Positions 1,606-63,763 of a DNA stretch of 64,000 bases are shown one piece after another. Position 1 is the first letter of the stretch. Each line of letters begins with the position of its first letter. Under the pieces are notes generated by a model, which made no database searches, had not been told where the DNA came from, and saw nothing but the letters and a program-made list of their open reading frames with translations. The stretch spans positions 682,001-746,000 of the forward strand of contig RSEE01000020.1 of NCBI GenBank assembly GCA_003971905.1, written 5' to 3'. The position numbers were made by a program, and so were the translations under genes. The stretch comes from Moniliella sp. 'wahieum'. Lineage: Eukaryota.

Positions 1606-2027
1606 GGATGACTAGTGACTAGTGGCGCTAGTGACGAGTCTGCTGAGATGAATGAGATGCATCGGCAATCCACACTCCAGCCCCGTGCGTTTAGGGTTTA
1701 CCCCACTGTGTTACACCCAGTACCACGTGGGCTGCCTACGTAAGCATCGAACTGCGCCGGATAATAGCATTACTTGCGTGTTATACGCCAGGCGGATGCG
1801 TCCGGCCGAGGGTGGCCTGCGCGCCGACGGAGGCACCGGCCGGCACAGGGCCAGTGTGGCACGTGCCAGCCGCCGCAACGCAGCGCCTCTACTCCTCGCA
1901 GACTGACGCAGCTGCGAGGCGGCACACAGCCAGCCACAGCGCCATCGCATCCCAGCGCCCGCCGCACCCCAACCAGCCCGCACCACCACCCGCCAGGGGA
2001 CAGCCGCCCACCTCCCCTCCCATCGCC

Positions 2028-4973
2028 ATGGCCTCCCAGTCGCCGCTGATCTGGCTGCCATCCAAACAGACCTCCGAGGTCGACGTGGCGACGCCCGTCA
2101 AGAAGCTCATCCAGACCAGCTACGGCGAGGACCCAGCCCAGTACGCCAGCGCCCTCGCCACCCTCAACCGCACCCGCCAGGACGCGATGCGTGGCGGCGC
2201 CAGCGACCAGACGGCGCGCGACCTGCTCCTCAAGTGGTTCCACATGCTCGAGGTCCTCGAGCTGCGCTTCCCCGAGCTCCGCACCCCCTTCCCCTGGCAC
2301 GATGCCTTCACCAACAGCAGACCACCCAGCAGAGCCTAGCGTACGAAAGGCGTGTGTGCTGTTCAACATTGCGGCCTCCCTCACATCCTTTGCTGCCTCC
2401 CGCCCGCGTCTGCCCGGCAACGCCGAGGGCATCCGCACTGCCTTCACCTCGCTCCGCCAGGCTGCTGGCATGCTGGGGTACATTAAGGACAACTTTCTCC
2501 ATGCGCCCAGCACCGACATGAGTGCCGACGTGCTCAAGGTGCTCAGCGCTCTCTGTCTCGCCCAGGCCGCCGAAGTCATCTATGAAAAAGCGGTGGAAGA
2601 CAAGAAGAACCCGGCGCTGATTGCCAAGATTGCTTCCCAGGCCGCGACGGCGTACCACCAGGTTTCGGACGACATTCGCCAGTGGTCCAACAAGTCGGTG
2701 CTGGAACGGTTGTGGCACGTGTTGACCCAGGCCAAGGCCCGACTGTTCACATCCTACATGCAGTACCACCGCGCGCTCGCCGACGAGGCCGCAGGCAACC
2801 ATGGTGCCTGTCTTGTGCGTCTCACCATTGCGGAAACGGCAGCTAAGGAGGCGGCGGCGCAAGCGGCCAACTACTACAGTATGGGCAGTGGCTGGCTCGC
2901 GTCCCCCACGTTGCCCAACGATGCGGCGGCCACGTTTCCAGGCCTTGGTGAAGCAACATGCGACGGTGGTGTCGGAGCGCAAGGCGACGGCCGAGAAGGA
3001 CAATGACTTGATTTACCACGATATGTTGCCTACCGAGAGCAGTCTTCCGTCCATTGACCCGGTGGAGGTGGCTACGCCGATCAGCGTACAGATGTCTACG
3101 CCAGTCCGGAGGTGGAAAAGATTGTGTCGCCGGATCTGTTCACGAGGCTGGTGCCGCTGCAAGTGCACGATCGGCCTCGCTCTACTCGGAGGAAAAAGCC
3201 AAGCTTGCGCGCGCCGAGTCGGAGCGATCTGAAGTGGCGTATGGAGCTGAGCACGGCGTTGGAGTACATGAAACTCCCCTCGGCCTTGGTGCCGCTCAAA
3301 GCTGCTACCGGCCAGCGACGGGAGGAGCGAGTTGGATGCGTTGGCCGATCCGCCGTCCGAGGTGCTGGAGTGGTCAACGCAAGAACAAGCTGCGCCCAAC
3401 CAGAGGGACAGCTACAGACGATCACCACTACGCACCCAGACCGACGAAGATTCAATCCATTACCTCTCTGCTGGACGATGAGGCGGCAGCCTGCGAACGT
3501 GCTCGCGCCCACTGGGGCTCGTCCAAGTGGACGCAAGACCCAAGTGGCGGCCACACCCGCACCCTCCGTTCGGATCTCAAGGCCAATCGCGAAGCGCATA
3601 CGGCTGCAGCAGGAAGCGACAAGCGGATTGCTGAGCTGTGGACGTCGATCCGGGCGGACGTGGCCTTACTCCAAGGAGGTCGACCCCATTGGAACGAACC
3701 TATGCAGAAGCGATTGCTTCGATGCCTGCACATGCGAGGAAGGGAAGTCTGCTGGATGCTGGAGAAGAGGATGATCGGAAGGAGAGTTCTTCGGAAGCCC
3801 GTATGAGCCAGCTGGTGAGGAGGTGGATGCAGTATACCAAGCTGTTGCGACTGAAAAAGGAGCGTGCGGCAACGCTTTCTGACCTCAAGGCCAAGTTGCG
3901 CGACGATGACATTTCCCAAGTCTTGGTCCTGCACCGTCGCTCTCCTGGCTCGACGCCCGCCATCTTTGCTGCGGAACTGGACAAGTTCCGTGCGTACCAG
4001 CAGCGCATTGGGCTGGTGAACGACAGCAGGCCCAAGCGCTCAAGCAGCTGAACCAGACCTGGGCCGAGCTGAACCAGCTGCCCGGCGCACGGCCGCCAGC
4101 TCGCGTCATGCGCATGCCGTTGCGGCGCGCGAAGGCTTGAGCCAGCGCTTCCGCCTCGCCCATCAACAGGCTACCGAGGTACGCACCGCCCTCGAACGCG
4201 GCACAGCATTTTACACACCGACTTGCGCGACATTCTCCACCAAATTCGGACCGGCGCCGAACATTTGTCGCCCAACGTACCAGCCAGCGAGACCAGCTCA
4301 CCTCCCAGCTCGAATGGGACAGTAAAGCTGCCCCTTCGTCCCTGATGCCCCCGTTGCCTCTCCCGCTCCTGCTCCCGCCCCCCGCTCCCGTCCCCCGCGC
4401 TCCGGTCACCGTCTCCTCCCCCCCCCCCCGACTTGCCGCAGGCCTGGGCTCGCTTCGTTGGGAAGTGCCGCTGCGCCCCGCGCGCCCCGGTGCCCCGGAG
4501 CGACAGTTGGGGCAATCCTGCCCCGCCCGCTCCGCCCGCCCCTGCTCCGGCGCCCTCCCAACCATCCCAATCGCCCTACGACAACATGTTCTCCCAAGGG
4601 CCCTTTGCGTCGTACGCCTCACCCCCAGCGCCCACGCCACCGAGCTGGACGGCTTCACCCGGCCCCGTCGGGTCCCCCGGCACCTCCTACGCCGTGGGCC
4701 CAGGCGTGCCTCCGCCCCCCCCGACGACGGGTATGCATCTACGCCTACGCCTACGTCTACGTCTACTCTGCGTCTGGGCTGCCCCCGCCGCCGTCGCTGC
4801 CGCCGCCGCCGTCGCAGTTCCACTTCGTACCCCTTGCCTTCGCGCGGGACGTACGCTTACCCCCCGCCGCCCGTGCCTCAGCCACCTCAGGCCCCGCAGG
4901 CCCCGCAGGCCCCGCAGGCTCAGGCTTACCCGCCCCGCCGCCGCCGCAGTGGCAGCAGCGCCCGGCGTATTGA
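2028..4973 (+). CDS. BRO1: BRO1/ALIX-family ESCRT adaptor (Bro1 domain, V domain, Pro-rich tail; indels)
   Basis: [15 protein letters not shown].., [53 protein letters not shown], and a Pro/Tyr-rich C-terminus ending QWQQRPAY*. Confidence 0.9.
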
Positions 4974-5853: not shown

Positions 5854-7967
5854 ATGGCCTCCCCGCCCCCGCCGTCGCGTGCACCGGCCGTCGACGCCCC
5901 CACGCCGGCTCCCGCTCCTGCTCCTGCTCCCGCTCCTGCCCCTGCCCCTGCCCCTGCCCCTGCCCCTGCCCTGCCCCTGCCCCTGCCCCTGCCCCTGCCC
6001 CTGCCCCTGCTCCTACCTCCGAGGGCACCCGTCTCATCCACCAAGAGTTTGGCCACGACGACACCCCTGCCTACCGCTACACACTCCCAGCACCGCACGG
6101 GCGAGCCTCTGCCTGCGCCGTTTGAGGAGGAGCCCGCGTACATGGTGGTGCTCTTTACCTACTTTACCTACATTGTCCTCATTATCGTTGGCCATTGCCG
6201 CGACTTTATCGGCAAGCGTCTGTACCCCAAGAGCTACGGGCACTTGATGGAGCACAATGGCTATGCGCGCTCAACTCGGACTTTGACTCGTTCTACACCC
6301 GTCGGCTCAAGAAGCGTCTGGACGACTGCTTTGCCCGTCCTGTCACGGGCGTGTGCGGGCGCACAGTCTTGCTTCTCGACCGTGTTTCCCCCGATTACTT
6401 GGAAACCTTCCGACTCACCGGCACCCAAACCCGCTGCCTCAACGTGTCGGCATACAACTACCTTGGCTTTGCCCAGTCTCACGGCGGCTGCGCCGACGCG
6501 GTCGAGACCTGTCTCGCCACCTATGGCATTTCGTCCTTGGGCTCCCGTCTGGGCGCCGGTTACCTGGACCTGCAGCAACAGGCTGAGGAGCTGGTCGCGC
6601 GCTTTGTCGGCCAAGAAGCTGCCACGGTCATCTCGATGGGCTTTGCGACGAATTCCACCACCATCCCGGTGCTCGCTGGCCTGGCACACTCATCATCTCG
6701 GACGAGTACAACCATTCTTCCATCCGCTTCGGCGCACGCATCTCGGGCGCCCACATTCGCCAGTACCGCCACAACGACATGAACAAGCTGGAAAAGTTGT
6801 TGCGCGAGTGCATTTCGCAAGGCATGCCCCGTACCCACCGCCCGTGGAAAAAGATCATTGTGATTGTGGAAGGCTTGTACTCGATGGAAGGCACGCTGGT
6901 CAACTTGCCCGAAATGATGCGGCTCAAACGGCGGTACAAGGTACGTGCCTCCCTTCCCGCTCTCGCCCCCCCTTTTCTGCACCCCTCTTTTGGACCCCCC
7001 TTTTTTTGCCTTCTTGGGCTGAACGACTACACCGACTGTGATCCTAACCCTCCTCGTTTGCTACCAGTTCCATCTCTACGTCGACGAGGCCCACTCGATC
7101 GGCGCGATTGGTCCCAACGGCCGTGGGGTATGTGACTACTTTGGTGTAGACCCTACCGAGGTGACCATCTTGATGGGCACACTTCCAAGTCGTTTGGTGC
7201 CGCGGGCGGGTACATTGCTGGGTCGAAAGAGGTGGTGGACCGGATTCGGCTCATGAACCATGCCAACAACTTTGGTGAGACCTTATCCCGCCGTCTTGAC
7301 CCAGATTGTGGCGTCGATGAGTAGCATTATGGGCGTGGGCAAGGTACCGGAAGAATTGGCGTTGGTGCCGCCATTTATTGCGGCGGGCTTGCCGGCGGAA
7401 ATGCGCAGTGGCCAAGAAGGCTTGGAACGACTGCGTCGACTCGCGTTCAATGCGCGCTACCTCCCTCGGGCTGCGCAAACTAGGTTTCATCATCTATGGT
7501 CACCGCGACAGTCCTATCATCCCACTCCTCATTTTTCAGCCGAGCAAGATGCCCATGTTCAGTCGCATGATGCTCGACCGATCCTTGGCCCTGCCGCCAT
7601 CGCAACGCCGTGCGCGTGCTAAACTCCTCCTCGACCTCCCGCCCGAGCAAAAGGCTCACCTGCAAGAGGTGGATGACCCCGCCTCGCTCGTCCCGGAGTC
7701 GGTGCCATCACGACCGCCGATCAATGTGGTCGTCGTCGCCTACCCCGCCACGCCCCTCGTCTCCTCCCGCGTGCGCTTCTGCGTCTCAGCAGCACACACC
7801 AAAAGGATATGGACGATGTGCTGCGTGCGTGCGACGAGATTGGTACTTTGATCCATTTGAAGTACGGATCGGGCGGGCCGGGGGGCAAGTGGTCAATCGA
7901 CGAGGTGATTGCGCGGTGCGAAGAGCTCGTGGCGTGGGACGGACACTCGCCACTCGTGCCTCGCTAA
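5854..7967 (+). CDS. LCB2: Serine palmitoyltransferase catalytic subunit (intron 6941-7067; indels)
   Basis: [60 protein letters not shown]-lysine motif, [16 protein letters not shown]. Intron GTACGT..CTAAC..CAG. Confidence 0.95.
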
Positions 7968-8462: not shown

Positions 8463-9891
8463 TCGATGGTGCGTCACGTGACGACGACCTGCCTCGCAAT
8501 CGCACCCAAGCAGTCACTAGCCAGGCGCCCACGAGAAGGACGAGGGTGGCCGGTGACCGGCGATGCATGATGGAGGCAAAAACCCTACTACCCAGGACCC
8601 AAAATAATTGCGCCCCCCTCCCTGCCTCTCTACCGAGCGTGTTCCGCCTTAACCTTCAGTTGAAGTTCAACGTTCAACCAAGGCGAGGCCTGATCTCATG
8701 GGTCGTGTGAGTCGCTCGCCCCGCCCTCGGACCGCATCTTCCCGTCGCACTCGTCCCACCGCCTGCTCCACCAAGCTGCGCACGGCCGACTAGGCCACGC
8801 AACGCAGCGGGCACGGTACATCCGCAGTGAGGTACGGCAAGTCGTGCACGAATGCCGGTCGGGGCGCGGCGTAGGCCAGGTCAAGCGAACGTTCGGGGAC
8901 CCCGTACCGCTACCCGCTGCGCACCGAGCACTTTACCACGGTACCACGGGGTGCGTGCTGTGGCCACCGGGTCAGCTTGGTGCTGGGCCATGTGCGGCCT
9001 GCGGCCCTTTCGGCGGTGCCAGGGTATACTACGGTGTGTGAATGGAGGGAAAACGCTAGGGGTCTGACTGGGGACGCTGGCTCGCGCGTCAGGCCACTCC
9101 CACTCTGCCACGTTGATGAATGAATGAATTTCGAATGTGGCCACGAGGCCGACGCATTCGTCCCCGTCCGGGGGCAAGAAGAGTGGGGTCGTCAGTCAGC
9201 GTCACGGGCAACGGTGCACCGTGGCGAGGCGGGGGGACGGATCAACCGTTGCTCACGGCCGGTCGGGCGTACCCCAAGGTAAGTACCGCGTCTGTCTAAC
9301 GTAACGTAACGTACCTTGTGTCTGCGCACCCGGGGTGGGCCAGGAACTTCATTGACCACCCCTCAGGCGGTGGGAACTACCCGCACGTTGGTCTTGCGCC
9401 TCGACCATTCCACCTTCTCCCCTGCGCGCCTACCGGGCAAAAGGCAGGTCTGCGTACCGCTCGCTGGAGATGGTACCGGGTTGGGCGGCGGTAGGCTCAA
9501 CAAGGGCGACTGAACGGTAAACCATATGATTGAAGCTGAGAGCTGCGATGAGGCGTCTCTTGCTTTTGTTCGTCCATTGCTTCTTTTCTGTTGTGCATAT
9601 TTTTCTTGGGTTCACCAGCTCGTTGGGGTTAGAAATGGGCCATGGCCAATGCCCGTTGGCACGTGCGCGATGCATGCAAGACCTACAATGGCAAAGGTTC
9701 TGCAGCCTTTGAGAAGGTAATACCAATTGTTGGGATGGAGCTGCATCACATTTCGCATCTCTCCGTCAAATAAACACCAAGTTCACGATGCTTGCCTGAG
9801 CGCTGAGCCTCAGCCTGAAGCAGGTGGCCGGCGGCCACCATGCATAACCGGCGGGGGAAGCTGGAAGCCGGTGCCGGTACGAAGGTGAAGT

Positions 9892-9971
9892 TTGAAGCGG
9901 GAGAAGCTTGAAGCGGGAGAAGCTTGAAGCGGGAGAAGCTTGAAGCGGGAGAAGCTTGAAGCGGGAGAAGC
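9892..9971. repeat. Perfect 16-bp tandem repeat x5 (TTGAAGCGGGAGAAGC) within a TNA-palindrome field
   Basis: Five exact copies start at 9892, 9908, 9924, 9940 and 9956. Confidence 0.95.
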
Positions 9972-11270
9972 TTGAAGCTTGAAGGTAGTCAAGTAGGGAA
10001 GCTGGTGAAGCTAGGGGCGCTTGAAGTGGGGCCGCGCAGCAGCACATTGGTTGGGCGCTAGTACCTAGTACTAGTTTACTAGTTTGGGCGGGCCGACGCG
10101 CGCGCGGCGCCACCGCCAGGCTGCTGGGTACGTGGTCTGTCTGTGTTGGACACGGCTGGTTCCTGCTGGATTGTTTCAGGCCTCGGCCTGGCTCGGCGCT
10201 CGAGGGACGGAGGCGTAGTTGGATCATCGATCAGAGCGGCAGAGTTAGGCTCTGTCTCACCGATCATCGTCCCATTCGCGCTGTCCCGCGGTGGATGGTC
10301 AAGCTTCAAGCTGTCAGGCTTGACGGTGGGGGGAGGAGCGCTGAACGGTGGACGCTGGACACTGACAGCGGGGAGGAGGTGGGGATAGAATTGTGGTTGG
10401 ACAATCCAAGCCAAGCCAAGGGCGGGGTGGAGCACGACGTGTGACGCATGAGGGTGGCGCGCAGCCAAGAAAGGATAGGCCGTAGGGCCGGTAGACACAC
10501 GAAAGGGCGCAGGCCACTATAGTGCGCAGCATGCGCCCAGTGCACTCCAGATGCAGCGTTCACTCTGCGATCGTGAATGTTGAACTGAATGTTGAACTTC
10601 AACGTTCATCCGCGGAGGCACCGGACAGGGCGGAGCCCGCCATGCGGCCTGGTGCGGCCGGCACCACACTGCCCTGGAGGCGGAGGGGGCGGGGACTGGC
10701 GCCGTGCGGGGCATGTGCGGGGGCTCGGAGGACGTCATGCGCGTCATGCGTCATGCATCATGCATCATGGGCGCATTGGAGCTGCAAACCCGCGGAAGCG
10801 CACAGCAGGGCGGCCGCACCAGCACAGCCTGCGGGCAGCTCCAGTACAGCGCCAGTACCGCGCCAGTGCTGCACAGTGCAGCCCTGGTGCGGCACAGGGG
10901 CAGTGTCCTCCGCGTGCTGCGTCTCGGACCAAGCCATCTGTCTCCCGCCTGTGACGATGCCGCCACACAGGCCCAGCCTTGGATGGCCTGCGATGCAGTC
11001 CGTCTCACATCCACACCAACCAACCCCTCTCTGCCCTCCAGCCCCAGCCCCTCCTCTCTGCCGCCTTCTCCTTCTCCTCTTCCTTCTCCGCCTCCTTCTC
11101 CTCTTCCTTCTCCGCATCCTCCAACACCACCCTCCTCCCGCCCCCCCCCCCGCCGCCGCTCGTTGGCCTGCGCTCTTCCCTCCGCCCGACACCCCTCCTC
11201 CCCCTTGTGGCAGGGCGCGCGTGAGCCGCCGCCCGCCGCTCGTTATCAGCCTCCCCTCCCTCCCCCCGCC

Positions 11271-13394
11271 ATGCCTCCTCTGCCACCGCCTTTGCGCTGC
11301 CACCACTCGCTTCCCATCCCCTCTTCCCCCCCTCCCACTCGTCCCGCAGCGATGCCAGGCCACGACTGGCCATGCCGCTGCCCCAACGAGCCGTACCGGT
11401 CGACGAATCCGACTCGGAACTCGACTCGGACGGCTCCAATCCGGCCCAGCCCTTCCTGAACCACGAGTATCCCCCCGTCTCCTCCCTGCCCACGGGCGGC
11501 CAAGCGTCCACCTCGGCCTCTGCCATCCTGTTTGACGAGCACGGCGAACTAGCCCGGGGCCTGGCCCCTGCGCTCGGTACCCACGCCTTGGCTGCCCCGC
11601 CGGCGCCACCACAACCATGGTACCAGCGCTGGTCCCGGGCTTTGTGCTTAGCGCCCCAGCTGCCGCCGCGCATGGTGCGCCTCCGCTCTTCTCTGCTGCG
11701 TCCGCCCGCATTGCCCTGCGCATCGGGCTGATCTTTGTCCTGTCCACGGCGGCGGTGATCGCCGGGCTGATGACGTTGCCCTGTCGCTGCCCGCCAAGGG
11801 CATCACCCACCTGACCATGAGTGAAATACGAAGCATGTCCCTGTCGCTGCAGACGTATGCGCACCAAACTGTGCCCGCGGCGCTGCACACGTGGGTGGTG
11901 CTGTTGAGCTTCTTTACCTGGAAACAAGCGTGGAGCGTGCCCGGATCAGTCGTGAATGTGTTTCTCGGCATGCTCTATGGCACCTACCCAGCCACCTTGT
12001 ACACCTCCTTTTTCACCGCCACGGGCGGCATGTTGTGCTACCTGCTCTCGCGGCCAGTCGGGCCGATCATCGAGCACTTGCCCGGGTTTCAGAAACCGTT
12101 GGGAGCGATGCGCCGCGCGCTCGCCATCCCAGTCCGCACGGGGGCCGCGCCATTGTCCCTGCCGCCCCCGCTGATGCGACGCAAGAAAAGTAGGCTACCC
12201 CGTGCCGCGCGTTCGGGCGGCAGCGTCCCTGTCCAAGCAGAGGGCAGCTCGACCTGGACCTCTTGCTGCTGCGCCTTGTGCCCATCGTACCCTGGAGCGC
12301 GATGAACATGTGTTGTGCCATGCTGCGTGTCCCGCTCTGGCCCTTCTGGGATCCTTCTTTCTCGGCAGCGTGCCGTGGAACTTTGTCACGACCCAAGTCG
12401 GTGACATTCTGCAGGACCTCCTGGCCGCCCTGCCGCTCGACGACAAGCCAGGGAGCGAGGCGGCAACGGGCCTGAGCATGATCAAAGCTAAGATTTGGTC
12501 GCCGGAAATGGTCGGGAAACTCTTCTTGCTCACCCTGGCTTCGCTCGTCCCGATGGCACTCCAGTGGTGGGTCAAGCGGCGCCGAGCAGCGGCGCCAGAG
12601 ACGGGCATGGCGCCTGGCACCGCCCTTTCGGAGCACGAGGTTGTGCCCGGAACCCACCCCGAACTCAACGCGGACCCGAAACCGAAACCGAACCTGAACC
12701 CGAAGCTGATGCTGATGCTGACGCTGAGGCCACGGAAGAATGGGGTGCCCAGCCTGCCTCGCCCCGTCGGTTGTTCTCTTGGACCCAGCCTCTCTTGCGG
12801 CGAGCGGATCGGAACTGTCCTTGCTTCCCAAACCATCGAGGGGGTGGGCAGATACGATTCGGACGCCGTCGCCGTTTGGCCAACTGTTGCGCCTCGCTTC
12901 CCCCGGCCCAGCGAGGAAAGAAGAGCGCGACGTAGAGTCTTCCCCTGGGACCGAAGAGGAACCCGAACGAGGATTTGGCACACCAACGTCCTTGGGATCA
13001 GTCTTGACCTCGCAAACCAGCCTCGTTGCCCCGGATGACAGCGAGCTGTCCAACCTGCCCAACCTGACCAGCCAGGCCAGCCACCCACGAGACGGCCTGG
13101 CCCCGGCCCGCTGCCGCGCCAGGCTCCAGTACCGGCCTACGTGGAGTGAGCTCGGGGCGCAAACCTGTCCTGCCCCCACTTACCCCGTTATCCCCCTCGA
13201 CGCAGAAAGCGATTGCGGACGAGTGGGCCGCGCCGGCCCGCACGCCGTCGCCCATGCAGGCGCTCAAGTTTGCCCGCGACCGCGAACGGGCGTTTGGCTT
13301 GGCCAATCCCCCCCCGGCTGTGGCCGCTACCCAGACACCGACACCGACACAGCCACAGCCACAGCCACAGCCACCGAAACGGCCACCGATATAG
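11271..13394 (+). CDS. DedA/VTT (SNARE_assoc; TMEM41/Tvp38-like) membrane protein; start and end approximate
   Basis: FTWKQAWSVPGS..NVFLGMLYG, TATGGMLCYLLS, LLRLVPIVPWSAMN, VPLWPF..GSFLGSVPWNFV..QVG are typical VTT-domain motifs, flanked by low-complexity tails. Confidence 0.75.
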
Positions 13395-13870
13395 ACACGG
13401 ATACCGCTACGGACACCGACAGAGGCGCGGTGGGTTGGCGTGATTGTATGGGTCTGCAAAGGCAAAGGGTCGGCGGGGCGGTGGGAATGTACCTGTGCAA
13501 CATGCTGATTGATTTGTTGCGTGTAGCTGTGGGCGTGGAGGATACAGAGGAAGAGCCTAGGTAGCTGTGCGGTGCTGCTTTCGTGCATCCCTCCCAGACG
13601 AAAGCGGATCAAGGAAGGAAGAGGGAGGAGTGGGGGTTGGGATTGGGATTGGGATTGGATGCGGGGATCCAAGAGCTCTTCCGAGAGGTACGATATATGA
13701 GGTGCGATGCAAACGTCCTTCCTATCCGACTTGTGCAATGGGGGTTCAATGTTTCAAGGGCGCCGCTGCCACCCTGAGGCCTGGCCTGGCCATCCGAATG
13801 AATACTCCTGCCCACCCTCTTGAGTCGGTGCGTAACCCCCTCCCCGCCGTCCTCGCGCCCTCGCCCGGCC

Positions 13871-16800
13871 ATGTGGATCGTCAGCAGCTTCTGGACGCGC
13901 CATGGCGTGTGGGAGGACCGGGTGCTGCTTCCCAACCACAGCTACCATGTTGGCCGGCGCCCGCGCCGCCCGCCTGCCTCGGGCGCCGACGACCGCACGC
14001 TCCATCTCTGGTTCCCTGAGGAATACGCCAGCCTGAGCCGGAACGCTCTCACGCTCCATGTCGGTCCCGCCGCGCCTCCCGGCACGCCTGTCCCGCCGCC
14101 CAGCATGCCCCCTGACCTGTCTCCCACCTGCCCCCGCTCTCTCCGCCTTGCGCGGGAACCAGGCGACGTGGACGGCGCGGCTGCCCTGCCACCGCTCTTG
14201 TCGGATACGCATGCCGTCCCGCCCGATGCCCCCCCGCTCGAACTCGAGACCCACACGCGCCCTGCCACCCCGTCCACCGTATCTCTTGTCTTGGGAGGCG
14301 ATGCTTCGCTCCGCAAGGACGGCGCACTGGTTACCGACCTCAACTCGCATGCGCCGTTCAAGGCCACCACACGCACCGACCTCGACACCCAGGCGGCGCA
14401 CCAGAACCTGGTGCTCAAACACCGCGACACGATCTACCTGCCTCGACAGGTCCTGCTGGTGTTTCGGTGGGAACCATTTGTGCTCGGCATCCCACCGGGC
14501 CTGGCGGAAAGCGAAACGTGGGCCATCCAAAGGCAACAGGCTGAAGCGCTGGGCATCCGTTGCTTGTCAGTGGACAAAGAGGACCCGGTCCTGACCAAAG
14601 CCGCCGTGTCGGCACAGTTGGTCGGGCAGAGCGTAGTGCGCAACCCACGCAAACCGCGCTTCACTCACCCGCTCTTACTCAGCGTCCCCCTCGTGCTCGA
14701 ACGATACCTGAGCAGGTGCATTGACCACGTGCGCCAGTTCCTAGCAGACCCCAACCAGGCCTTTGTCGGGCTCCCCCCCCCGCGTCGAACTTACCCTTCG
14801 CTGGTCCGGCGCCCGCGCAAGCGTACGACGATCGACCTCACGTGCAAATCTTTCCGGAGAACTTGCGGTCCCGGAGCCTATTTGACCAGCTGTCGCGCGA
14901 CCTGCCCCCGCTCCAGGGGTAGACGTGGCGCTGGAAGAGTACTGGGCTCGGCTCTGTGCAGGGGGAAACTTTAGTACGCTACAAGGCCTTTCGGTGGTGT
15001 GGGTGTGCCCGACGACTGAAGCAAGCCACGAAGCAGCCCGCTCCGCTCCAGCCACCTTTCTTCGCGCCATGGGCGGCCGTCTCTTTGTCCGCACCGCCAG
15101 CCTCGACTCGCGCGAACAAGTAGCAGGCTTGTTGTCCAAGATTCGGCTGGACCATCAGTTGCTGCTCTGGTACCAGCAAGCGATCGCAGCCATGCCGGAC
15201 AATCCCATCGTACCTCCTGGCGCGTCGTACTTGCCACGAGGTGGCACGGCCCTGTACCTCGACCCAGCGTTGGAGGAACAAGTGGGCCAAGTCTATGCCC
15301 AAGGCGCTCTCGCGTACGTATACTTTCGTCTTCATTCTGTTTTTTGGGGGTTTTGGTTTTGGTGTTGGTATTGGTGTTGGTATTGTTTTTGTCGGTAGGC
15401 GCAGTGGCTCACCTTAAGCTTGTCTTTCCTTGCCCTATGGCCCAGGGCGGAGATCCCCGTCATCAACCAACCAACTTTGAGTCGCTCGACTGCTCCTGCA
15501 CAATGCCGGCCTGGGTGTCCACCAACACTCCAGACTCAACTGGGATCGCCTACCTGGTCTCCCCCCAGCGCCGGGCGAAGCCCCCCTTGCCCTAGCACAC
15601 CACGCTCCCACACCGCCACCTGTCCCCGCTCCCGCCCCCATTCCTGTCCAAGCACAAGCACAAGCACAACCGCCCGCCGCTCTACCCGAGCCAAGACAGC
15701 TCACTCCACCACGCGAGCTCCCCGACGTCGGAGGCGGTACTATGATACTACCGAACCCTGTCCCGCCACGCCGAGGATCGCGCCCACCTCGCGCAAAGAG
15801 CGCTTGGCCCGGCTGGCTCAGGAAGCCGAACAGGCCAGTGTGCACTCGAGCGTCGCTCCGCTGCCGGTCCGGCTCAGGATCCGGTCCTAGTGCCGCTGTA
15901 AGTGCAGGTGTAGGTGCAGGTACGAGCGGGAGCGGGAGTGGGGAACCCCCCAAGTCGGCACGGTTCGCCGTTTTGCTGCAGCAGGAACGTGAGGCTCACA
16001 TGGCAGATATGCCTGTGCCAGCGACGCATGCGGCTGATCTGCCTCAGGGCAGGCCGCGCCCCCCCCCACCTGGGGAAGCTGGGACGACAAGCCCACCTGC
16101 TGCACTGGTGGAAACGCAGGCAGAGTCCCCCCCTGCCCCGAGGTCGAGGCAGGCTTCGCATGCGTCCGCCGCGCCCGTCGAGCCTACCTCGGCTTCGGAG
16201 GCGTCGCATGTCCTGACCGACACGGAGTTTCAAGCCCAGTTCCGTTCCGCTCGCAGAGGCGTGGTGCAAGAGGAGCGGTCGCTGGACCAGGCCATCGATT
16301 CGCTCCGACCTCTCAAGCGACCTGGCCGATCTGCTGTGCGCACCCCGTCGGGCCAAGCCGATGTGGACGAGCAGTCGGTGGACATGCAAGCGTGGCAGCG
16401 CCTGGGTCCCGACGCATTCAATTTCCCCCCTGGGAATTACATGCAAATTGTGCGGTTCGAGCTGCCCGCTGCACCGGTCTGGCCTGCCTCTGCTTCCACC
16501 TCCGCCTCTTCTTCTTCTTCTCTGCAGCCGGCGCGCAACCTGAACCTGAAACCGTTTCGGAAGCAATCGGTGGCTGCCTATGCGCCCGACGGACGCCTGC
16601 TCGTCCAGCCCGGCCAAGAAGAAGAGGAAGGGTGGCCCGTGCCACGCGACGCGCCGGTCGCGGTAGCCTTGCCGCGGTACGAAGCCTACGCGTACGCGCC
16701 GCTGGCTGAAGGCGCCGACCCAGGTGCGGCGCAAGGCGCCGCAACCGCGGGCGCGGCCGCGTCCGACCCACCGCCTTGGCCCAACGAGGTGAGCTGCTGG

Positions 16801-20556: not shown

Positions 20557-20616
<60 letters not shown>

Positions 20617-22184: not shown

Positions 22185-22215
22185 TAGGGTTGGGATTGCC
22201 CCTCTCTAGGGTTGG
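22185..22215 (+). promoter_or_regulatory. Two TAGGGTTGG telo-box/Homol-E-like motifs upstream of RPL38
   Basis: Exact 9-mers at 22185 and 22207, 80-110 bp upstream of the ATG. The same 9-mer occurs upstream of LCB2 and aconitase. Confidence 0.45.
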
Positions 22216-22294
22216 TCGCCCACGCCTGTCCGCGCCAGTTGGGCAGCTGGGCGCGGTGCTGCAGCCCGCCGCCAACGTCCATCCAGTCGTCACG

Positions 22295-36981: not shown

Positions 36982-37052
36982 GCCCCATCCTGATGGAGCG
37001 TCCTCCATTTTTCATCCACCCCCACCTCTCTACTCCCCTCCCCTCCCTCACA

Positions 37053-47010: not shown

Positions 47011-47309
47011 GCTGTCAGGAAACGGGAGATGGAGGAAAGGGGAGCAGATGGATTGGTATACATTGATGGACGGACTGGAGGCATAAGTATCTCAGAAGGA
47101 AGGGGGCATAGTCGAAAAGAGAGGTGGACACAGGATCTCCCATAACTGATAGGAATCACGTCATCGTGCCCATAAGGGCCCCTTAGCAGGGCGTGGTTCC
47201 GACACTAGCCGTCATTGCAATAACTTTTCATCCACATCCGTGCAAGTACTGTTAGTGGTGCTTGGTCATCCCGGTCTCTTCGGTTTGTGTACCCACAACA
47301 GTACTATAT

Positions 47310-48275: not shown

Positions 48276-48865
48276 AAGACCGCCTCGGTGTATCCAGCGC
48301 GAGAGAGGCTCCTAAGGCTGGAAACAGAGATCGCATGCGTTCTCACATGCTCACATCGAATCCGTCTCTCGCCGTCGGCCTTCCTTCCATATGTTTTCTT
48401 TCTTTCTCAGCCTATAGTCTCCTTCTCTTCATTTTGGTTTTGTTGTGACGTGGAGATGATGACTTTACCCGGACAGATCCTGAGCGACGCTGGCACTTCA
48501 GGCCACTAGCCACTGTTCTGTCCGCGCGTCTGAGCCTTCCTTTTTGTGCTCGGCTGGGTTCGCCTCGCCTCCTCTTTCTTTCCCCGACCGACATCGCTTC
48601 CACGCTTCCACGCTTCCACGCTTCCACACCATAATACTTCGTTCACCCTCCGTGCTCGTGATCGACTCCCTAACTCCGACATTCAGTGAGTCAGGAAGGG
48701 CCACCTGATTGCGGCCAGTTTACCACGGCGCGCGCAACAGATCCTAATAACCGCAATCGCATGGCACTGTGTGCCAGCTGTCGCAACACCGTGGCTACTG
48801 GGGTGGAACAAAGTAGAGGGTACCATTTTCTCCAACATCTTTGCCCAGTCGTATAAAACACCACG

Positions 48866-49692
48866 TGTCACGGGCGGGCGCCGCCAGGGGGCCCGCCCTG
48901 GGGTTTTTTGGGATACAATCCCTTAGGCGACGGTAGGTCGGCTCACGGTAGTTTCGGGATCGGGCTGGTTGGTGTATCCGAGCGGAGCTAGGGACGAGGA
49001 GAGGCCTTTGGTGGGGCGGCTGCACGTGTGGCAAGGCTGCGTCTGCACCGGCTTGGGCCGTAGTAACGTGTCTGAAGCCTCCGGGACTTAGGGACGGGAG
49101 GAGGAGACAGTGGCGGACAAACACTGCCTCAACTGAGACTGGAAATCGACGCGGCCAGAGGAGGGCTCGCGCGACTGGACTGACGAATGGCTGGAGGACG
49201 AGATCGGAGGAGATGTCGGACGGTAACAAAAGTAGGCTGCCTGTACTGGATCAATTGGCTGGAAAACGGGCAGGAGTCGGACAGGATAGGCGAGAGGGTA
49301 GACGAGGGGGTTGAGACGAGAATGGAAGGTGGGGGAAAAGATCCCCATCAACCAGGGGCACAGGCAGGATCAAAAGGGAAACGGATACAAGAGGGGGTGT
49401 AGAAAGGAAGACATGTCAGAAGCGGCCCGGTTGGTCGCCACAGGCGCGACCGAGAAAGGAAACGGAAACGGGGACGGGACGGCAGATGCCGCCACGGTAC
49501 TGGAAGCTCGGTGGCCTTATTTAGGCCGGCCGACTTGGACTTGGGCGGGGGGGCGACTATTGTCGCACGGAGCATGGCCCTTCGGCCACGATACTTAATT
49601 TAGCCAACCATCATCACACTTGGTTTTGGCCTGCGGAGCAGGCGGGCCTTAGCTTCGGTCGGACCATCTCGAGTCCGCCGCAGCCCGTGACA
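48866..49692 (-). mobile_element. Solo LTR (or short TG..CA element), 827 bp, with 10-bp terminal inverted repeats and a perfect 5-bp TSD
   Basis: CCACG|TGTCACGGGC ... GCCCGTGACA|CCACG (TSD at 48861-48865 and 49693-49697). A TAAATAA box followed by a pyrimidine-rich tract on the - strand suggests the orientation. Confidence 0.88.
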
Positions 49693-50508: not shown

Positions 50509-52233
50509 TTAGAAGCCCATGCCGCCCATACCACCCATACCGCCCATGGGGGGCATGCCACCCGCCGGGCCCTTCTCCTCCGGAGCGTCGACAATGCAGC
50601 ATTCGGACGTGGTCAGAAGCGACGCAACGCCCGCCGCGTCCTGAAGCGAGGTACGGATGACCTTGAGCGGGTCCAAGATCCCGGCCGCGCTCAGGTCCTT
50701 GAACTCGGCCGTGGCAGCATCGTAGCCGTAGCTAAAGTTGTCCAGGTGCGACTCGAGCAGCCGGCCAACGACCACCGAGCCCTCCTCCCCGGCATTCTCC
50801 ACAATCTGCCGCGTCGGCCGCGTCAGCGCCGCCTTGATGATCGACACACCCAATTGCTGATCAAAGTTGGCAGTCTTGACCGCCCCGAGGGCCTGGGTGG
50901 CCTTGAGCAGCGCCGTGCCACCACCGGGCACCACACCCTCCTCCACCGCAGCACGAGTCGCGTTCAGCGCATCGTCGTACCGGTCCTTCTCCCCCACCTC
51001 CACCTCCGAGGAACCACCCACCTTGATCACCGCCACACCACCCGACAGCTTGGCCAGGCGCTCCTGCAGCTTCGACTTGTCGTACTCCGACGTTGTCTCG
51101 TTGACAGCGGCGCGGATCTGCTCGCAGCGGTAGGCAAGCGCGTCCTTAGAGCCAGCGCCGTTAAGGAAGATAGTGTCCTCCTTGGTGATTGTGATGGATT
51201 CGGCCGAGCCGAGCATGTCGGGCGTGGCCCGCTCCAGCTTGATCTCCAGCTCGTCAGAGAAGACGGTACCGCCAGTCAGGATACCCAGGTCGCCGAGGAT
51301 CGACTTGCGGTTGTCGCCAAAGCCGGGGGCCTTGACTGCGCACACCGACAGCTGGCCACGCAGCTTGTTCAGAATGCAAGCCGCCAACGCCTCGCCATCC
51401 ACATCCTCAGCAATGATCAGCAACGGGCGACGCAGCTTGGCGGCCGCCTCGAGCGAGGGAAGGATGTCTTGCAACACCGAGATCTTCTTCTCAGAAAGGA
51501 GGATCAGGGGCTTCTCAAACTCCACCTTCTGCGTCTTGACGTCGGTGATAAAGTAGGGGGAGATGTAGCCGCGGTCAAAGCGCATACCCTCGGTGATCTC
51601 AATCTCGTCCTCGAGGGTACGACCCTCCTTGACAGTGATCACACCCTCCTTGCCGACCTTCTCCATCGCAGTGGCAATCAGCTGGCCCACGTGCGTGTCG
51701 CCGTTGGCCGAAATGGTAGCGACCTGAGCAATCTCCTCCGAGGTGGTAACCGGCTTCTTGTGCTCCTCGAGGAACTTGATGACAGCCTCGACGGCAGCTT
51801 GGGTACCACGGCGAAGGTCCATAGGGTTGCACCCAGCCGCAACGTTCTTGACACCCTCAGCGTAGATGGCGCGAGCGAGGACAGTAGCGGCCGTCGTACC
51901 ATCGCCAGCCTCGTCGTTGGCCTTGTTCGCAACATCCTGCACCAGACGAGCACCCAGGTTCTCAAACTTGTCTTTCAGCTCAATTGCCTTGGCAACGGTA
52001 ACGCCGTCCTTGGTGATCTTGGGTCCGCCAAACGCCTGCTCGATAATGACGTTGCGACCCTTGGGGCCCATGGTGACGCTCACCGCGTCGGCGAGGAGGT
52101 TGACACCCTTGAGCATGGCCGCACGGCCATCGTTGCTGAACAGCACTTCCTTGTGCGCGTGAGCGGCAGCCGACGTGCTGAACGCCCGCGACGCACGCAG
52201 GGGCACCTTGGTAGCAGTACGGAGGAGCGACAT
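50509..52233 (-). CDS. HSP60: Mitochondrial chaperonin Hsp60
   Basis: 574-aa ORF with an Arg/Ser-rich presequence, [22 protein letters not shown] and a (GGM)n tail. Confidence 0.98.
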
Positions 52234-52635
52234 CGCAGCTGCTGGGACGGGGAGAGGAGGTGGTGGGGAAAGCGGACGAAGAAGGACGGGGCGCGAGTGT
52301 ATTTAATGACCGACCGCTCCAGACCAGACGCGGGGAGAGACTGGGGCAGTGCCTGGAAGATTCCGCCGAAGCTACTGGAAGATGAAATGGACCGGAAGTG
52401 CTTTAAGCCACTGCCACACTCGCCCGTGCCTCCTGCGGCGGTGACCAACGTCGACGCAGAACCTCGGCGGCGGGGGCACGGGGCAGTGTATGTGCTCCCG
52501 CCCCGCTGTTAAAGCATCCTGGGGAAGCCTGGGGTCGGGTCCGCCGGCCCGAGCTTCGGGTGGACGGGCTACGCACGTTCCCCTCTTCCTGCCTCACCAC
52601 CACTTGCTTCTGTTACTTCCCCCCACACACTCGCC
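52234..52635. promoter_or_regulatory. Putative bidirectional HSP60/HSP10 promoter with HSE-like units
   Basis: 402 bp separate the divergent ATGs. GAAgaTTC lies at 52356-52363, with further GAA at 52368 and 52378. Confidence 0.6.
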
Positions 52636-53028
52636 ATGGCATCCACCATCAAGTCGGTCAAGAACATCGTTCCCCTGCTGGACCGCGTGCTGGTGCAGCG
52701 CTTCAAGGCGGAGACCAAGACAGCCTCGGGCCTCTACTTGCCTAGCTCTGCGACCCAGTCGCCTTTGCCAGAGGCGCACGTTGTCGCTGCTGGCCCCGGC
52801 GCTCTCACCAAGGATGGCCAGACGATCCCCATGAGCGTCAAGGCTGGCGACAAGGTCCTGCTCCCTGGTTTGGGGCGGTAGCTCCATCAAGGTGGGCGAG
52901 GAGGTACGTCACTTCTCCTTCCATTTGGTTTTGCCAACACGCCTTCTGACTGTCGTCTTTGACGTAACGACTGGTAGGAGTACCTCCTTATCAAGGACAG
53001 CGAAATCCTGGCCAAGCTCAATGAGTAA
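52636..53028 (+). CDS. HSP10: Mitochondrial co-chaperonin Hsp10 (intron 52904-52977; one indel)
   Basis: PLLDRVLVQRFKAETKTASGLYLP..VVAAGPG..VKAGDKVLLP, and exon 2 EYLLIKDSEILAKLNE*. Confidence 0.96.
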
Positions 53029-53395
53029 TACTCCATCAGCATTAAAATGCATTGACTTGGGGGCGCCCCTTTGTTAACCTCCTGGCAGTTAGTCCTCATC
53101 CATACAAGAAGTGTACCTGTTTCCGGTTCCCACCTACAAAAGCTCCAACTATCGTCATCATTCCTGCGTTTCTCATGTAAGACAAGGAGAACCACCGGGC
53201 CGACGGCCCGGTCAGCTGGGGCGAAGCCCCAGCTGCCGTTCCCCCTTCGCCACCGTAGCCACCGTTCCACCGTCGCCAACACCGACATAGGAATAATATC
53301 ACCGATTCGTTCTGGCTGCAGGGGGGGTGGAACGTGGCACGGGGCAGCTGATGTAAAAAGTGCACAGGGCGAATGGAGGAATTCATAACGCAGAC

Positions 53396-53831
53396 GGTGG
53401 TGCATGAGAGCACCGCAACCCCCTTGGAACGCCGGGAGAAGGAGCTGCTTCGGATGCTTGAACAAGCAGAATGCGACAAGAACGCCAAGTACCAGGGACG
53501 CACTCAAGAGCCGTTTTTCCCCCTGGTTTTGACGACGCGAGGATACTACGGCACCAAGACGGCGGGCAAGTTGTTCGCGCATTGGAAGGAGTTGGCTACT
53601 AAGTCTCAGTGGAAATGGTTCCTCGCTCGGATGTCAACCACGTTCCTCCGTGTCCACACGCGCTTCCTAGGGTACGGGACCGGATGGCGTGAGCCGGAGG
53701 GTCCTGATATCCTGGCGATCCCCCTGGTCCCTTGACCCTGGTGGCGCCCCCAAGTAACCCCCGCAAGATGAACGGTTAGGTTTAGACGTAGCGTTCCCCC
53801 TGTCCCAGCCTTAAGCTCTGTCAATGAAATG
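53396..53831 (+). repeat. Dispersed ~435-bp repeat, copy 2
   Basis: Highly similar to 35836-36271, including the sequence after the stop codon. Confidence 0.9.
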
Positions 53832-54077
53832 GACGTGACTTAGGGATGTGTGCGCACAGAAAATCTTACGTGGGTGACGACACATTGACCTTCCGATGGG
53901 CTGGGGTCTGGCTGCCAAACACTGAACGAGCGAGTCTGGTATGAGCTAAGCGATTCAGTAGCTACGTAGCTAAATGGATGGCACACAAAGGGTGAAGATG
54001 GTTAGATCGTAGTTTTGGTATTGAATGGTGACAAGTCGTTACTGGCTCATGAAAAGGAAACCAGCCCAAGAGGCCAC

Positions 54078-55464
<1,387 letters not shown>

Positions 55465-56595
55465 GGCGATGGGAAGGGAAACAATTGCTGGAGACAGATG
55501 GGTGAGGAGGAGGTCGAGGGGGAAGGGCGTGGGGAGCGTGTTTAAATACAGACAGATGGGGGCCGGGGTGGCATGGAAACCGAGAGTGTATCACACAGGT
55601 GGTTCTGCGCCCACTTGGGGGCGCACAGGCGCCGGGCCACAGCACGCACTGGCGCCGTGCGGCTGGGGCAGCGCTCGCGTACATTTCAAATCGTCAAGTG
55701 CCCAAGCCAGCAGTGTCGCGCGAATCAAACCAACAGCACCGGCCGCTGCCCCCACCACAGCCAGCAGCAGCACCCACCAAACTCAGCCCTCGGCATGACC
55801 TGACTTGGCCCGCCGCCCCCACCTCGCCATGCCTCGCCCTGCTGCCATCCCCACCACTGCGCCACCCGTGCACATCGGTTGCATCATACGCGTCCTACAA
55901 CTCAGCCCTCAGCACAACTGTCCCCATCATCACAGCCCATCTCAATCTCCCCCGTCACCACGGTACTTGCTACTCGGTGCGCGCGTCAGCATGTCCATCT
56001 CAGCTGTCCCACAAAGCTCCCAAGGCCCAACCCCTCGTCCGTCAGCACATCAGCTCAGCTCCTGTAGCTTCTATAGCTTCTAGCACTTTTATCCCCCTCC
56101 CCGTCGTCCACAGGCTTGTCCATCACACCTCGCACCTCCTACATGACATGTGACAGCTGCCCCAGCGGTTCGCACCGTCCTCACATTCTCAGATCCTCCA
56201 ACTGAAGGCTTCATATTGGCGCACTCGCATGGATAGCGGCTCAGCCCGCCCGCCCCCCCACTACCATTTTCAATCCCCATCCACTTGTTGGGCTACAAAG
56301 ACGGCAGTTTTCATGCATTGGCATGGCAGAGCTTGACGGTCCCATACCAAAGGGTGGGAGAAGAATGGCGGGCAAAACAGCTAGCAAAGCTTCCTTGAGA
56401 TGATCTCGTGAGATATATATGCGGGGGTGGAGATGGAGAATGGCAAGGGACGAAGCTCATAAAGCGTCGAGTAGGGGCCCAAATCGATCGCAGATCGAGC
56501 TGGAGGTTCAGCGTTCAGCAACCATGCATGTGGATACGGTCGCACTCTGGGTACCAACCTGAGATACCGAGTCACTCGTTCCATAGGACGAGCTC

Positions 56596-58366: not shown

Positions 58367-60448
58367 GGGAGTGTGGGGAGGGGAATGGTGATGGAGGGAG
58401 ATGGTGGTGGAGGAGGGAGTGCAAGTGCAGGACGCAGCTGGGATTGATTAGCAAGGAGCTCGTAGCCCACGGGACACTGGACACCTGCTAAAGTTGCGCT
58501 ACTTGGGCCTGCCGAAGAAGAAGCGGGGTGCTGAGCTCAGCCCGAGTGTGAGCTGAGCGGCTGAGCAGCTCACCGCTCGCGCACCTCCCTCCCCTCTCCA
58601 CTCTCCATCCTCCACCCTCCACCGGGCGAGCGGGAGGCGCACCCGGCGACCGGCATCCGGCAACTGGCAGCCGCCGACAGCACAACAATCCTTACACTCT
58701 TCCAGCTTCCAGCTTCCAGCTTCCAGCTTCAAGCGCCATCGATCATCGCAGACTCGCCCCACTCCCCCGCCCATCTCGATCACTGGGCGGAGCCGCCCGG
58801 GGTTTATAATGTAGCACCACCTCTCCCCCATCAAAGTACTGACGTCACTAGCACTGCCCCGCGCTTGCTGTGACGTGTGCATGTGATGTCGACCCCCGTC
58901 CCACTCCTGTCCCAGACATCCCACACCTCCCCCTCCCCAACCTGGACGCGGTTCAGATCCAGCGGTCAGAGTTCTGATCCCATAACCAGTAACCCATGCC
59001 ACCCTTCTCACCACCCCAATCCCATGCCCACTTCGCGCGTCCATACGCCTAGGCCTTCCTGCTGAGCAACGCAACGTGTTCCTGTGTTCCTGTGTTCCTC
59101 GAGCCCCCCTCCTCCGCCCCCCGGCCAGACCAGAAGACAATCGGCGTTGTGCGTCAACAGCAACATGAAGGGCGTGGCGAGGGGACAAGAAAGACGAAGA
59201 GATGCCCGACTCGCGCTAGGCCTGCCCGCCCAACCCCTCCCTCGGCTTTGTACGCAAGACGTATCAAGGGAAGCGATCCGCGGCGAAGCGTTTGTTGGTT
59301 CGCTCAGCGTGGGTCTTCAGCCATCCACTCGGCGCGCAACGGAAAGCTGAAAGACCCCTCTGATGACCAGCACCGTTCATGCCTGTGTGGCAGGAGCGGC
59401 AGGACCGACACGGGACAGTTTGTATTGGGAGGTGTTGGGGACCTTAGGGACCAAGTGGGACCAGGGGGGACAGGGGGAGCTGGGATCTAGGAAACCACAC
59501 TCGCCCGCCGTTCTACCTATTGCACCGCGGCCCAGTTGGGTCCAACCTTTTCCCTGTCTCTGTCCTCCGCCCACAGTGCGAGGGAGCGTTTGGCGAGCCT
59601 CGCGAGGTGGCTTATACAGGGCCCGAGAAGGCTCCCATGTGATCTCTCATGTCACACCGCGCGGCCTCCAAAGCGCGGCGCGGCGCACCTCAGCACCAAG
59701 CCCAGCACCTTGTTCTTGCTCCAGGGCCACACCCACTGCAAGGTGGCTGCGGGGCTGCTGCAGGTCGCAAAGGTGGCCGGCCATGGTGACTGGTCAGGCC
59801 TCAGGCCGGTCAGGTGACCTGGCGCGTCGTATCCTATCCTATATTATCGTATCCGTTCTTTCCTTAGTACTATGTTCGGCCTGCTCGTCCCCGCTTCCTG
59901 CGCGGCTCGCTGGCCCGCTACACTGCATACTGAACACCGAGTACTAAGACAGACGCTTGAGGCAGAGAGGCACACGGGGCCAACGCAACGTTGGTAAGTG
60001 CAGCAGTAGGCAGACGAGCCGACGGCTCTCCTGAGCGGAGGCATGTTGGTGCGAGTTGAGGCCGGAGGCTCAGTGATGCTAGCAATGCTAGTAGTGAACC
60101 TAAACCTAATACCTCTGAGCGTTCGTTCCATACAGCAAGGGGTGGGGGGTGAACGAGTGAAGCAGGCAGGGTGGCAAATCGATCAACCGGGGCTCTGGTC
60201 GGCAATACTGAATCGATTCAATCATCTATGGCATAGGGGAGACACGAGACTCCAAGTCAAGTGGAATAGTGAGACGGAGCGAGAGCCACAGCTTTTCTTC
60301 ATATCCAACATGTCGCACTAGATGTACATGCAAGGGGGGGTGGGGAAAGGAAGCGGAGAGGACGACGCGACAGCCCAAAGTCAAAAAGCCAAAGCCTGAC
60401 TGGAATTGCCAGCTGTAGCCTTAGGCGGTAAGCCTTAAGCCCTCAAGC

Positions 60449-62938: not shown

Positions 62939-63763
62939 GGCGTCGGCTGCGCGGGAGAAGGGCGGTGGTGGTGGGACAGAAGGCAGCCGGAGGCCTAGCT
63001 GGGCTGGGCTGCCTGCGAGCGCCAGCCGTCGCTTTTTAATCCAGCCGCCGAGGCCGCGGGCGCGGGCACGGCGCCAGTGGCGGCGCGTGCGGGGGAAGGC
63101 GGGGGACGCGGGCGCAGGGGCAGTATCCGGAGGCCGCGGCTGCCTTTGAAAACGAGCGGTGGCTCGTGGCATGCCGCCGCACCGGTGCTGTGCGCATGCG
63201 AGCCAACCCTACGGCCGCTGACAAATGGGCGCGATGTGCAGCCGGCAGTGCGCGGGCGTTTGGGCCGGGCCAAGCCGGAGATGGCAGTCGCAGCCCCTGC
63301 GTGTGCATCGCTCATGCATGTGCGTGCAGGCGGTGACACGCCCGGGCAGCCGGATAGCCGGGCAGCCGGGCAGCCGGAGAACGTCAACCGGCAGCAGGCG
63401 AGCCGGGCTGTCACATGTCACATGTCACATGCCATGTGGCAGCGGCGCAAGCGGGGCTACGCGGGTGCATGCGCCACCTGCTTTGGGCCAGCGTGAATGC
63501 ATGCGTTGCCTGCCAAATATCAAATCCCAGTCCCGACACAGGGGGATGTGCGGGGTCACGTGCCAACCCAGTCTGAGCGCACCTCAACTCAACCAACGCA
63601 GTTTACCCCAGACGCTCGCTTGGGCCATCTCCTGTCTGGCCACGCTACTAAAAGGGCGTGGAGGCACGGACATATATGTCACTTGGTGTTCCTTCCTAAG
63701 GCAACGAGAGCGAGAGAATCGTAGCAACGCACAGGCACGTGCTCGCCTGCTCCCCACCCCCCA

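Follow-up and report, generated by a model that had tools for sequence, protein, structure and literature searches.

Transposases of the hAT, Transib, RAG and MULE types close the DNA that flanks their element into a hairpin, which host enzymes then open, and the hairpin left by Muta1 is 43 + 43 nt, i.e. exact, according to the available extract of Liu and Wessler 2017 (PMC5499845). Exact flank-hairpin footprints of this sort (Transib and RAG coding joints, the MULE Muta1) were compared with a pattern of short palindromes in a 64-kb stretch of contig RSEE01000020.1 from the fungus Moniliella sp. 'wahieum' (positions 682,001 to 746,000), called the window here; all counts and the searches for elements and transposases refer to this one window. 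Its non-coding DNA carries patches of tandem heptamers of the form xyTNAy'x', and we put the probability at about 55% that these patches have built up from the scars left at excision by a cut-and-paste DNA transposon, or by a single transposase family, with a 7-bp NN-TNA-NN duplication. On that reading the scars share with the known footprints a directly duplicated target joined to a short inverted copy of the flank, an even palindrome whose axis would be the former boundary of the element, and a hairpin opened a few bases from its tip. They differ in that they combine 7 bp with a T-N-A centre (Transib duplicates 5 bp, MULEs 8-10 bp, and the CMCT clade 2-5 bp in the extract of Kojima 2025, PMC12730594), form one class and not a spectrum, are dense enough to build repeat arrays, and have no element in the window. 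The same extract gives 7-bp duplications in Basidiomycota for hAT7 of rusts and Kyakuja of mushrooms. Active CMC and KDZ elements with duplications of 2, 3 and 4-8 bp are described from Cryptococcus, in a source whose available part does not mention scars (PMC12810828). No published description of T-N-A-centred heptamer scars or arrays, or of a 7-bp T-N-A-centred target, was found in the literature covered, which excluded subscription journals.

All ten example sites that an earlier note, made from the sequence alone, had cited were present with the units and positions it gave (10/10), and its claim that T-N-A exceeds other centres of odd palindromes held up against 30 dinucleotide-preserving shuffles. 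Heptamers xyzNz'y'x' with T..A as the inner pair numbered 267 against 170.2±12.4 in shuffles, whereas A-N-T (154 vs 188), C-N-G (352 vs 401) and G-N-C (334 vs 387) were not enriched. Among 9-mers the T-N-A centre was found 101 times against 45.0±6.6, and the three other centres matched expectation. Coding frames were counted as such only where Pfam supported them (15,667 bp), so that "non-coding" here includes unrecognised genes. Outside these frames 231 T-N-A-centred heptamers were found where 129±10 were expected, and within them 33 where 39.5±7.2 were expected; the excess thus lies wholly outside Pfam-supported frames, in agreement with the earlier observation that the fields are missing from conserved coding sequence. 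Some 20 patches had been claimed, and 18 were counted, holding 52 arrays. The pentamer palindromes that the earlier note had placed in the same class (GTAAC, CTCAG) did not hold as a class: T-N-A, a 2-bp palindrome and T-N-A occurred 10 times against 6.5 in shuffles, and the only real array among these sites is at 9297-9313.

A tandem pair of xyTNAy'x' units is equivalent to T-N-A, a 4-bp palindrome and a second T-N-A, and in this form the pattern follows a simple rule. When all 16 outer pairs were tried in the frame XNY + 4-bp palindrome + XNY, T-N-A gave 63 junctions and the 15 others gave 0-18. Put another way, 63 of the 119 same-N TNA....TNA pairs enclose a palindrome, against an expectation of about 1 in 16. 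The 63 junctions form 52 arrays, of which 42 have two T-N-A copies, 9 have three and 1 has four. In 54 of the 63 junctions, the palindromic core consists of the two neighbouring bases preceded or followed by their own reverse complement, so that pqTNA is turned into pqTNA-q'p'-pqTNA, with five bases copied in the forward direction and two in reverse. Such flank-templated junctions numbered 54 for T-N-A, 2 for A-N-T, 1 for C-N-G and 1 for G-N-C, against 0.2 in 20 shuffles. An array was called flank-dictated if the dinucleotide to its left matches the end of the core, or the dinucleotide to its right matches the beginning. This was true of 43 of the 52 arrays, with 15 dictated from the left only, 13 from the right only, 15 from both sides and 9 from neither. 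Two-sided templating, found in 15/52 arrays and in 10/42 of those with two copies, would be expected in only about 1 in 16 if the arms were random.

The target is duplicated directly on both sides of the scar. NNTNA pentamers recur at a spacing of 7 in 106 cases, and in 74 of these the spacer is the inverted dinucleotide; spacing 5 gives 9 cases, 8 gives 19, 9 gives 23 and 14 gives 37. Among all pairs of T-N-A that enclose a palindrome, counted with any N and 74 in number, the central N is the same in 63, the complement in 5 and something else in 6. Since N is copied directly and not mirrored, the axis of the palindrome is the middle of the 4-bp core and not N.

This bears on the hAT family, whose hairpins carry a one-base offset and so give odd palindromes about the last flank base; hAT elements duplicate 8 bp, with the target consensus nTnnnnAn. 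The earlier note had taken the odd central base of the heptamers for the unpaired tip of a hAT-type hairpin, and this part of its account fails, both on the copied N and on the lack of a +6 class. The hAT elements (Ac/Ds, Hermes) and hAT7 of rusts do share a flank hairpin and palindromic scars with the present pattern, and hAT7 also has the 7-bp duplication (extract of PMC12730594). A one-base offset on a 7-bp duplication would, however, predict +6 products with the core q'p'q, of which T-N-A has 3 and the other centres have 1, 5 and 15, and the consensus nTnnnnAn would centre scars on A-N-T. A hAT-type footprint was therefore rejected: +6 is unenriched, period 8 is not above its neighbours, and N is copied as it stands and not as its complement. 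Excision of the P type leaves bases that derive from the element, unlike the flank-derived bases here. Galileo, of the P superfamily, resembles the pattern in its 7-bp duplication and its odd-palindromic consensus GTANTAC around a free central base (extract of Gonçalves et al. 2014, PMC4168063), but it has an A-N-T centre and fixed arms, and is an animal element.

The flank rule also bears on elements that use T-N-A as a plain target. PIF/Harbinger and IS5-type elements have T-N-A, or TWA, as their target, the same trinucleotide as here, but their duplication is 3 bp. Elements of PIF/Harbinger-type logic are stated to make 3-bp duplications in the extract of PMC12730594, and canonical scars of such elements (PIF/Harbinger-, CACTA- or Tc1-like) would consist of T-N-A, two end bases from each terminus, and T-N-A. 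The two end bases of each inverted terminus would likewise form a 4-bp palindromic core, and 9 of the 63 cores here are not templated by the flank. Yet the core follows the local flank in the other 54, which already contradicts this origin, and the 13 distinct core sequences would call for 13 families, each with matching flank preferences; we regard it as scarcely credible. The +3 class (TNATNA) numbered 44 where shuffles gave 25.7, a weak rise, and most events are +7. Flank templating and the variety of cores, 13 in all, exclude scars built from element end bases by Tc1 or PIF logic.

Of the periods not divisible by 3, period 7 stood apart, with 203 match runs of at least 5 against 57.5 in shuffles; periods 5, 8, 10, 11 and 13 gave 85-122. 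Arrays of heptamers, some with 3-4 copies, in patches that are intergenic and often promoter-side could suggest slippage of a heptamer microsatellite, or groups of palindromic binding sites for transcription factors that selection maintains. Slippage gives no reason for T-N-A, for a palindromic core or for flank templating, and as a source of the arrays it is already contradicted: plain 7-bp duplications, those whose unit is not a palindrome, are background and about equal at T-N-A, A-N-T, C-N-G and G-N-C (7, 6, 11 and 7), whereas the T-N-A class begins at single-copy sites and adds five direct and two inverted bases. It may still lengthen arrays that already exist. Nearly every possible arm is used across the palindromes, so that no single factor would bind them. 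Either origin seems very unlikely.

The junctions are also far more uniform than transposon scars usually are. To describe them, a ligation model was used in which the two flank hairpins at a 7-bp site t open at a distance of k bases from the tip and the two strands are then joined; for any k the product is +7, namely t, the reverse complement of the last k bases of t, and t again from base k+1. At non-palindromic sites 34 junctions fit k = 2, which gives the same product as k = 3 because T pairs with A, while none fit k = 1 alone and k = 0 was at background. The +11 class, in which both inverted pairs would be retained, was absent (0), and the +9 class had only 2 junctions; the spectrum of variants that end joining would leave was not seen. 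A Transib-like model with a 5-bp duplication, symmetric opening and direct ligation was rejected by reasoning, as the products expected from it, pqTNATN'TNArs and pqTq'p'pqTNArs, differ from the one observed, and it would fit only with an unexplained asymmetry.

Inverted and direct local copying in one event is also the typical product of a short-range template switch (the four-point model) during replication or break repair. Here a nascent end in ...TNA would re-pair with the T-N-A of the other strand (T with A and A with T, N mismatched), copy two bases backwards, then return and recopy pqTNA. The self-complementary outer bases of T-N-A would explain the choice of site with no sequence-specific enzyme. 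A-N-T, C-N-G and G-N-C are equally self-complementary, however, and show 2, 1 and 1 events against 54. The return jump would have no homology to guide it, and a fixed geometry of two bases back and five forward in all informative cases is unlike the wandering of a polymerase. This route is judged quite unlikely.

From the sequence outcomes we infer a transposon, its hairpins, the position at which they open and the route of ligation. In the proposed course of events, an inserting element would duplicate its 7-bp target, NN-T-N-A-NN (pqTNArs for short). At excision the transposase would leave an exact, covalently closed hairpin on each flank, and a nuclease would open each hairpin 2 nt (or, equivalently, 3 nt) from the tip. 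The ends would then carry 4-nt self-complementary overhangs, the left one rs s'r' and the right one q'p' pq, and would be joined by straight ligation across both strands. At a non-palindromic site this would produce a 4-nt mismatch bubble, which replication would resolve to pqTNA-q'p'pq-TNArs or pqTNA-rss'r'-TNArs; at a palindromic site (rs = q'p') the overhangs would be true sticky ends and the result a perfect tandem duplication. In either case the net change would be +7 with T-N-A regenerated twice. Artemis usually opens hairpins at 2 nt.

Several features of the window would follow from this model. Direct ligation would give +7 only, without +9 and +11 classes. The two mirror products would arise as the daughters of a single heteroduplex that carries the 4-nt bubble, hence the near balance of left-templated (15) and right-templated (13) arrays, and true sticky ends would favour palindromic targets, hence their excess. 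Both this symmetry and that between TCA (26) and TGA (21) are expected from a two-fold symmetric transpososome together with the mismatch bubble. Each event on a non-palindromic site would create one perfectly palindromic, easily re-ligated site, and arrays would therefore seed themselves. The mixed array CA TGA.TGCA TGA.TGCA TGA.CCGG TGA CC at 44156-44183 reads as three successive +7 events on an ancestral CATGACC, of which two copied the left flank (CA) and one the right flank (CC), and TG TTA.CATG TTA.GGCC TTA GG at 44074-44094 reads as derived from TGTTAGG by successive hits. The earlier note had proposed that an enzyme cuts repeatedly at T-N-A, that repair copies the flank in inverted form and recreates the target, and that the fields grow by self-seeding. 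In outline this stands, given 54 templated junctions at T-N-A against 1-2 at each other centre and the array at 44156-44183; what falls is the odd base as the tip of the hairpin.

Among sites outside coding frames, events were found at 26 of 703 TCA, 21 of 600 TGA, 4 of 245 TTA and 3 of 221 TAA sites, so that a central G or C is favoured about 2.4-fold; no further base preference was seen in the eight bases on either side (43 sites). None of the 54 junctions lies inside the 15.7 kb of Pfam-supported coding frames, which we read as selection against frameshifts. The scars have also decayed by degrees. The 12-nt pattern with 0, 1 and 2 broken constraints was found 74, 90 and 210 times on both strands, against 0.3, 7.9 and 105 in shuffles, and the excess is similar at each step, which fits neutral decay of scars made over a long time better than a single burst. 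An assembly or amplification artefact would be expected neither to avoid coding frames, nor to decay in a graded way, nor to follow a local templating rule, and can be given next to no weight.

Several points weigh against a transposon as the source. As the earlier note had found, no candidate enzyme is encoded in the window: transposase, integrase and nuclease families had no Pfam match among all 186 frames of at least 130 aa, nor among 102 frames of at least 70 aa (10 shared with the 186) at 27.0-36.9, 43.6-50.4 and 52.9-53.6 kb. No inverted termini with a 7-10 bp duplication were found in the window by a scan of 5-10 bp duplications, and ends of the CTCACTG, CACTG or CACTA type with a 7-bp duplication gave nothing credible there, just two chance-level pairs. 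Recognisable perfect scars are also dense, at about one for every 30 T-N-A sites outside coding frames (54/1,769). No known flank-hairpin superfamily pairs a 7-bp duplication with a T-N-A centre. Finally, the informative junctions form one class, whereas end-joining transposon scars are usually heterogeneous, and this could indicate a more concerted enzymatic reaction than the opening of hairpins by host nucleases.

Three of these points, the missing element and transposase, the extreme stereotypy with 34 informative junctions in one class, and the high density of sites, would suit an element-free source: a site-specific nuclease, or a domesticated RAG-like transposase, that acts at NN-TNA-NN and whose staggered breaks and hairpins are repaired to +7. 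We know of no host enzyme of this kind acting without a mobile element. A direct duplication of 5-7 bases also requires either a staggered cut with fill-in or an insertion, which a transposon supplies for free, and an enzyme of this sort on its own is considered unlikely.

An unannotated dispersed repeat without a Pfam match lies in the window as two pairs of copies and a fragment at 46096-46161. One pair is at 35835-36272 and 53393-53831, with 93% identity over 440 bp. The other is an inverted pair at 34715-35274 and 48910-49447, with 77-83% identity and several indels. Neither pair showed a 7-base indel between its copies, and so no single gain event was caught.

Related loci were sought by an Hsp70 protein scan of metagenomes, which returned 80 loci. 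The closest two, L026 and L027, have 90-91% protein identity to the Hsp70 of the window, 79% coding-DNA identity and 46-48% G+C, and at 79% their DNA is too distant for spacers to be aligned. As a negative control, the 263 kb of these metagenome loci, mostly coding, gave 7 rule-fitting junctions for T-N-A, 5 for A-N-T, 3 for C-N-G and 4 for G-N-C. None was found in the flanks of L026 (1-3000) and L027 (1-770); the pattern may be lineage-specific, and the sample from these two loci is far too small to tell.

Along the window, the patches begin with a single right-flank-templated +7 junction, TGA.CTAG.TGA, at 1607-1620 between the Kelch-repeat and BRO1/ALIX genes, followed by GTTCAAC x2, a duplicated palindromic 7-bp target, at 8665-8678. 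The patch at 9795-10310 has 4 junctions and holds a higher-order array at 9887-9978, in which a 16-bp unit, GAAGCTTGAAGCGGGA, is repeated 5.8 times with 98% identity; the unit contains TGA.AGCT.TGA, so that a scar has been carried into the larger repeat. A three-copy TCA.TGCA array lies at 10749-10769 and CATGATG x3 at 17216-17236. The patch at 27129-27383 has 3 junctions (TTA.TCGA, TGA.CTAG and TGA.GGCC/TGCA). At 27372-27401 stand plain 7-bp copies of CATGACC with one 10-bp even palindrome, CATGA/TCATG, between them; this junction is outside the rule and would correspond to a longer inverted copy of the left flank. A TCA.CGCG junction and a three-copy TAA.GATC array share 30451-30497, and a patch of 5 templated junctions, mostly TCA.AGCT, occupies 31149-31375. 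TGTCACA x2 stands upstream of the Hsp70 gene at 36588-36601, and single junctions are found at 40849-40862 (TCA.TCGA.TCA) and 43313-43326 (TGA.CGCG.TGA).

The densest patch, with 11 templated junctions and many decayed units around them, extends over 43796-44737. It is followed by a patch of 4 junctions at 45136-45587 that includes GGTCACC x2, a single TGA.GCGC.TGA at 46898-46911, and a patch of 10 junctions at 47370-48277 that includes CCTGAGG x2, GCTCAGC x2 and CTTCAAG x3. Farther on there are single junctions at 56142-56155 (TGA.CATG.TGA, between the enolase and FAD-oxidase genes) and 59792-59805 (TCA.GGCC.TCA), and TGTCACA x3 at 63409-63429, upstream of the aconitase gene, which is on the minus strand.

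The arrays are clustered: 30 of the gaps between neighbours do not exceed 200 bp, where randomly placed T-N-A sites give 11.4±2.7. This may partly be an effect of unannotated coding DNA. The part at 44-48 kb, which has the lowest G+C of the window, holds 17 of the 52 arrays, with 286 T-N-A sites at 44001-48000. No arrays were seen at 12001-16000, 20001-24000, 32001-36000 and 52001-56000, despite 73-150 T-N-A sites outside Pfam-supported frames in each; these stretches may be unrecognised genes, younger DNA or chromatin in a different state. Long hexamer arrays, namely CCTGCC x16 (5917-6014), AGGGAA x13 (18852-18931), CTCACT x12 (20564-20633) and GGAAAG x8.5 (40715-40764), are ordinary microsatellites outside the T-N-A rule.

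The window has 60% G+C and carries ordinary fungal genes with Pfam support: Kelch, BRO1/ALIX, aminotransferase, GATA, L38e, chitin synthase, Hsp70, Hsp60, enolase, FAD oxidase and aconitase. Its Hsp70 has 76-78% identity to Tilletia and Violaceomyces, and its mitochondrial Hsp60 has 82-84% to Malassezia and 79% to Tilletia. The closest named matches of both proteins are thus in Ustilaginomycotina, which suggests a smut-related fungus; no named close relative was found for either in the protein comparison. On the minus strand at 36858-38699, three frames antisense to Hsp70 match PF10712 (NAD-specific glutamate dehydrogenase) with E-values of 1e-21 to 1e-47, which we read as an opposite-strand match of Hsp70 and not as a second gene.

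The sequence rule, its T-N-A specificity, its confinement to non-coding DNA and its stereotypy can be read directly from the window. If the excision-scar reading holds, the cut-and-repair chemistry of one enzyme has shaped a visible share of this fungus's non-coding DNA, its history could be read base by base from the scars, and annotators are warned that these palindromic arrays are not regulatory motifs by default. The scars would then record, naturally and across the genome, the way in which a fungus without the vertebrate machinery opens and joins breaks capped by hairpins. They would reveal how heptamer repeats can be seeded in DNA that was single-copy, and would point to a type of transposon, with a 7-bp T-N-A-centred target, outside the superfamilies listed above. 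More tentatively, an undescribed and still-running mutational machine may be at work, in which an unrecognised transposase (7-bp NN-TNA-NN target, exact hairpins) or a host-captured derivative writes a deterministic +7 at T-N-A, at a rate per site comparable with point mutation, and continually makes palindromic hexamers (A-NNNN-T) and heptamer repeats in promoters. If so, it would be a new route for the birth of short tandem repeats and of palindromes to which proteins could potentially bind.

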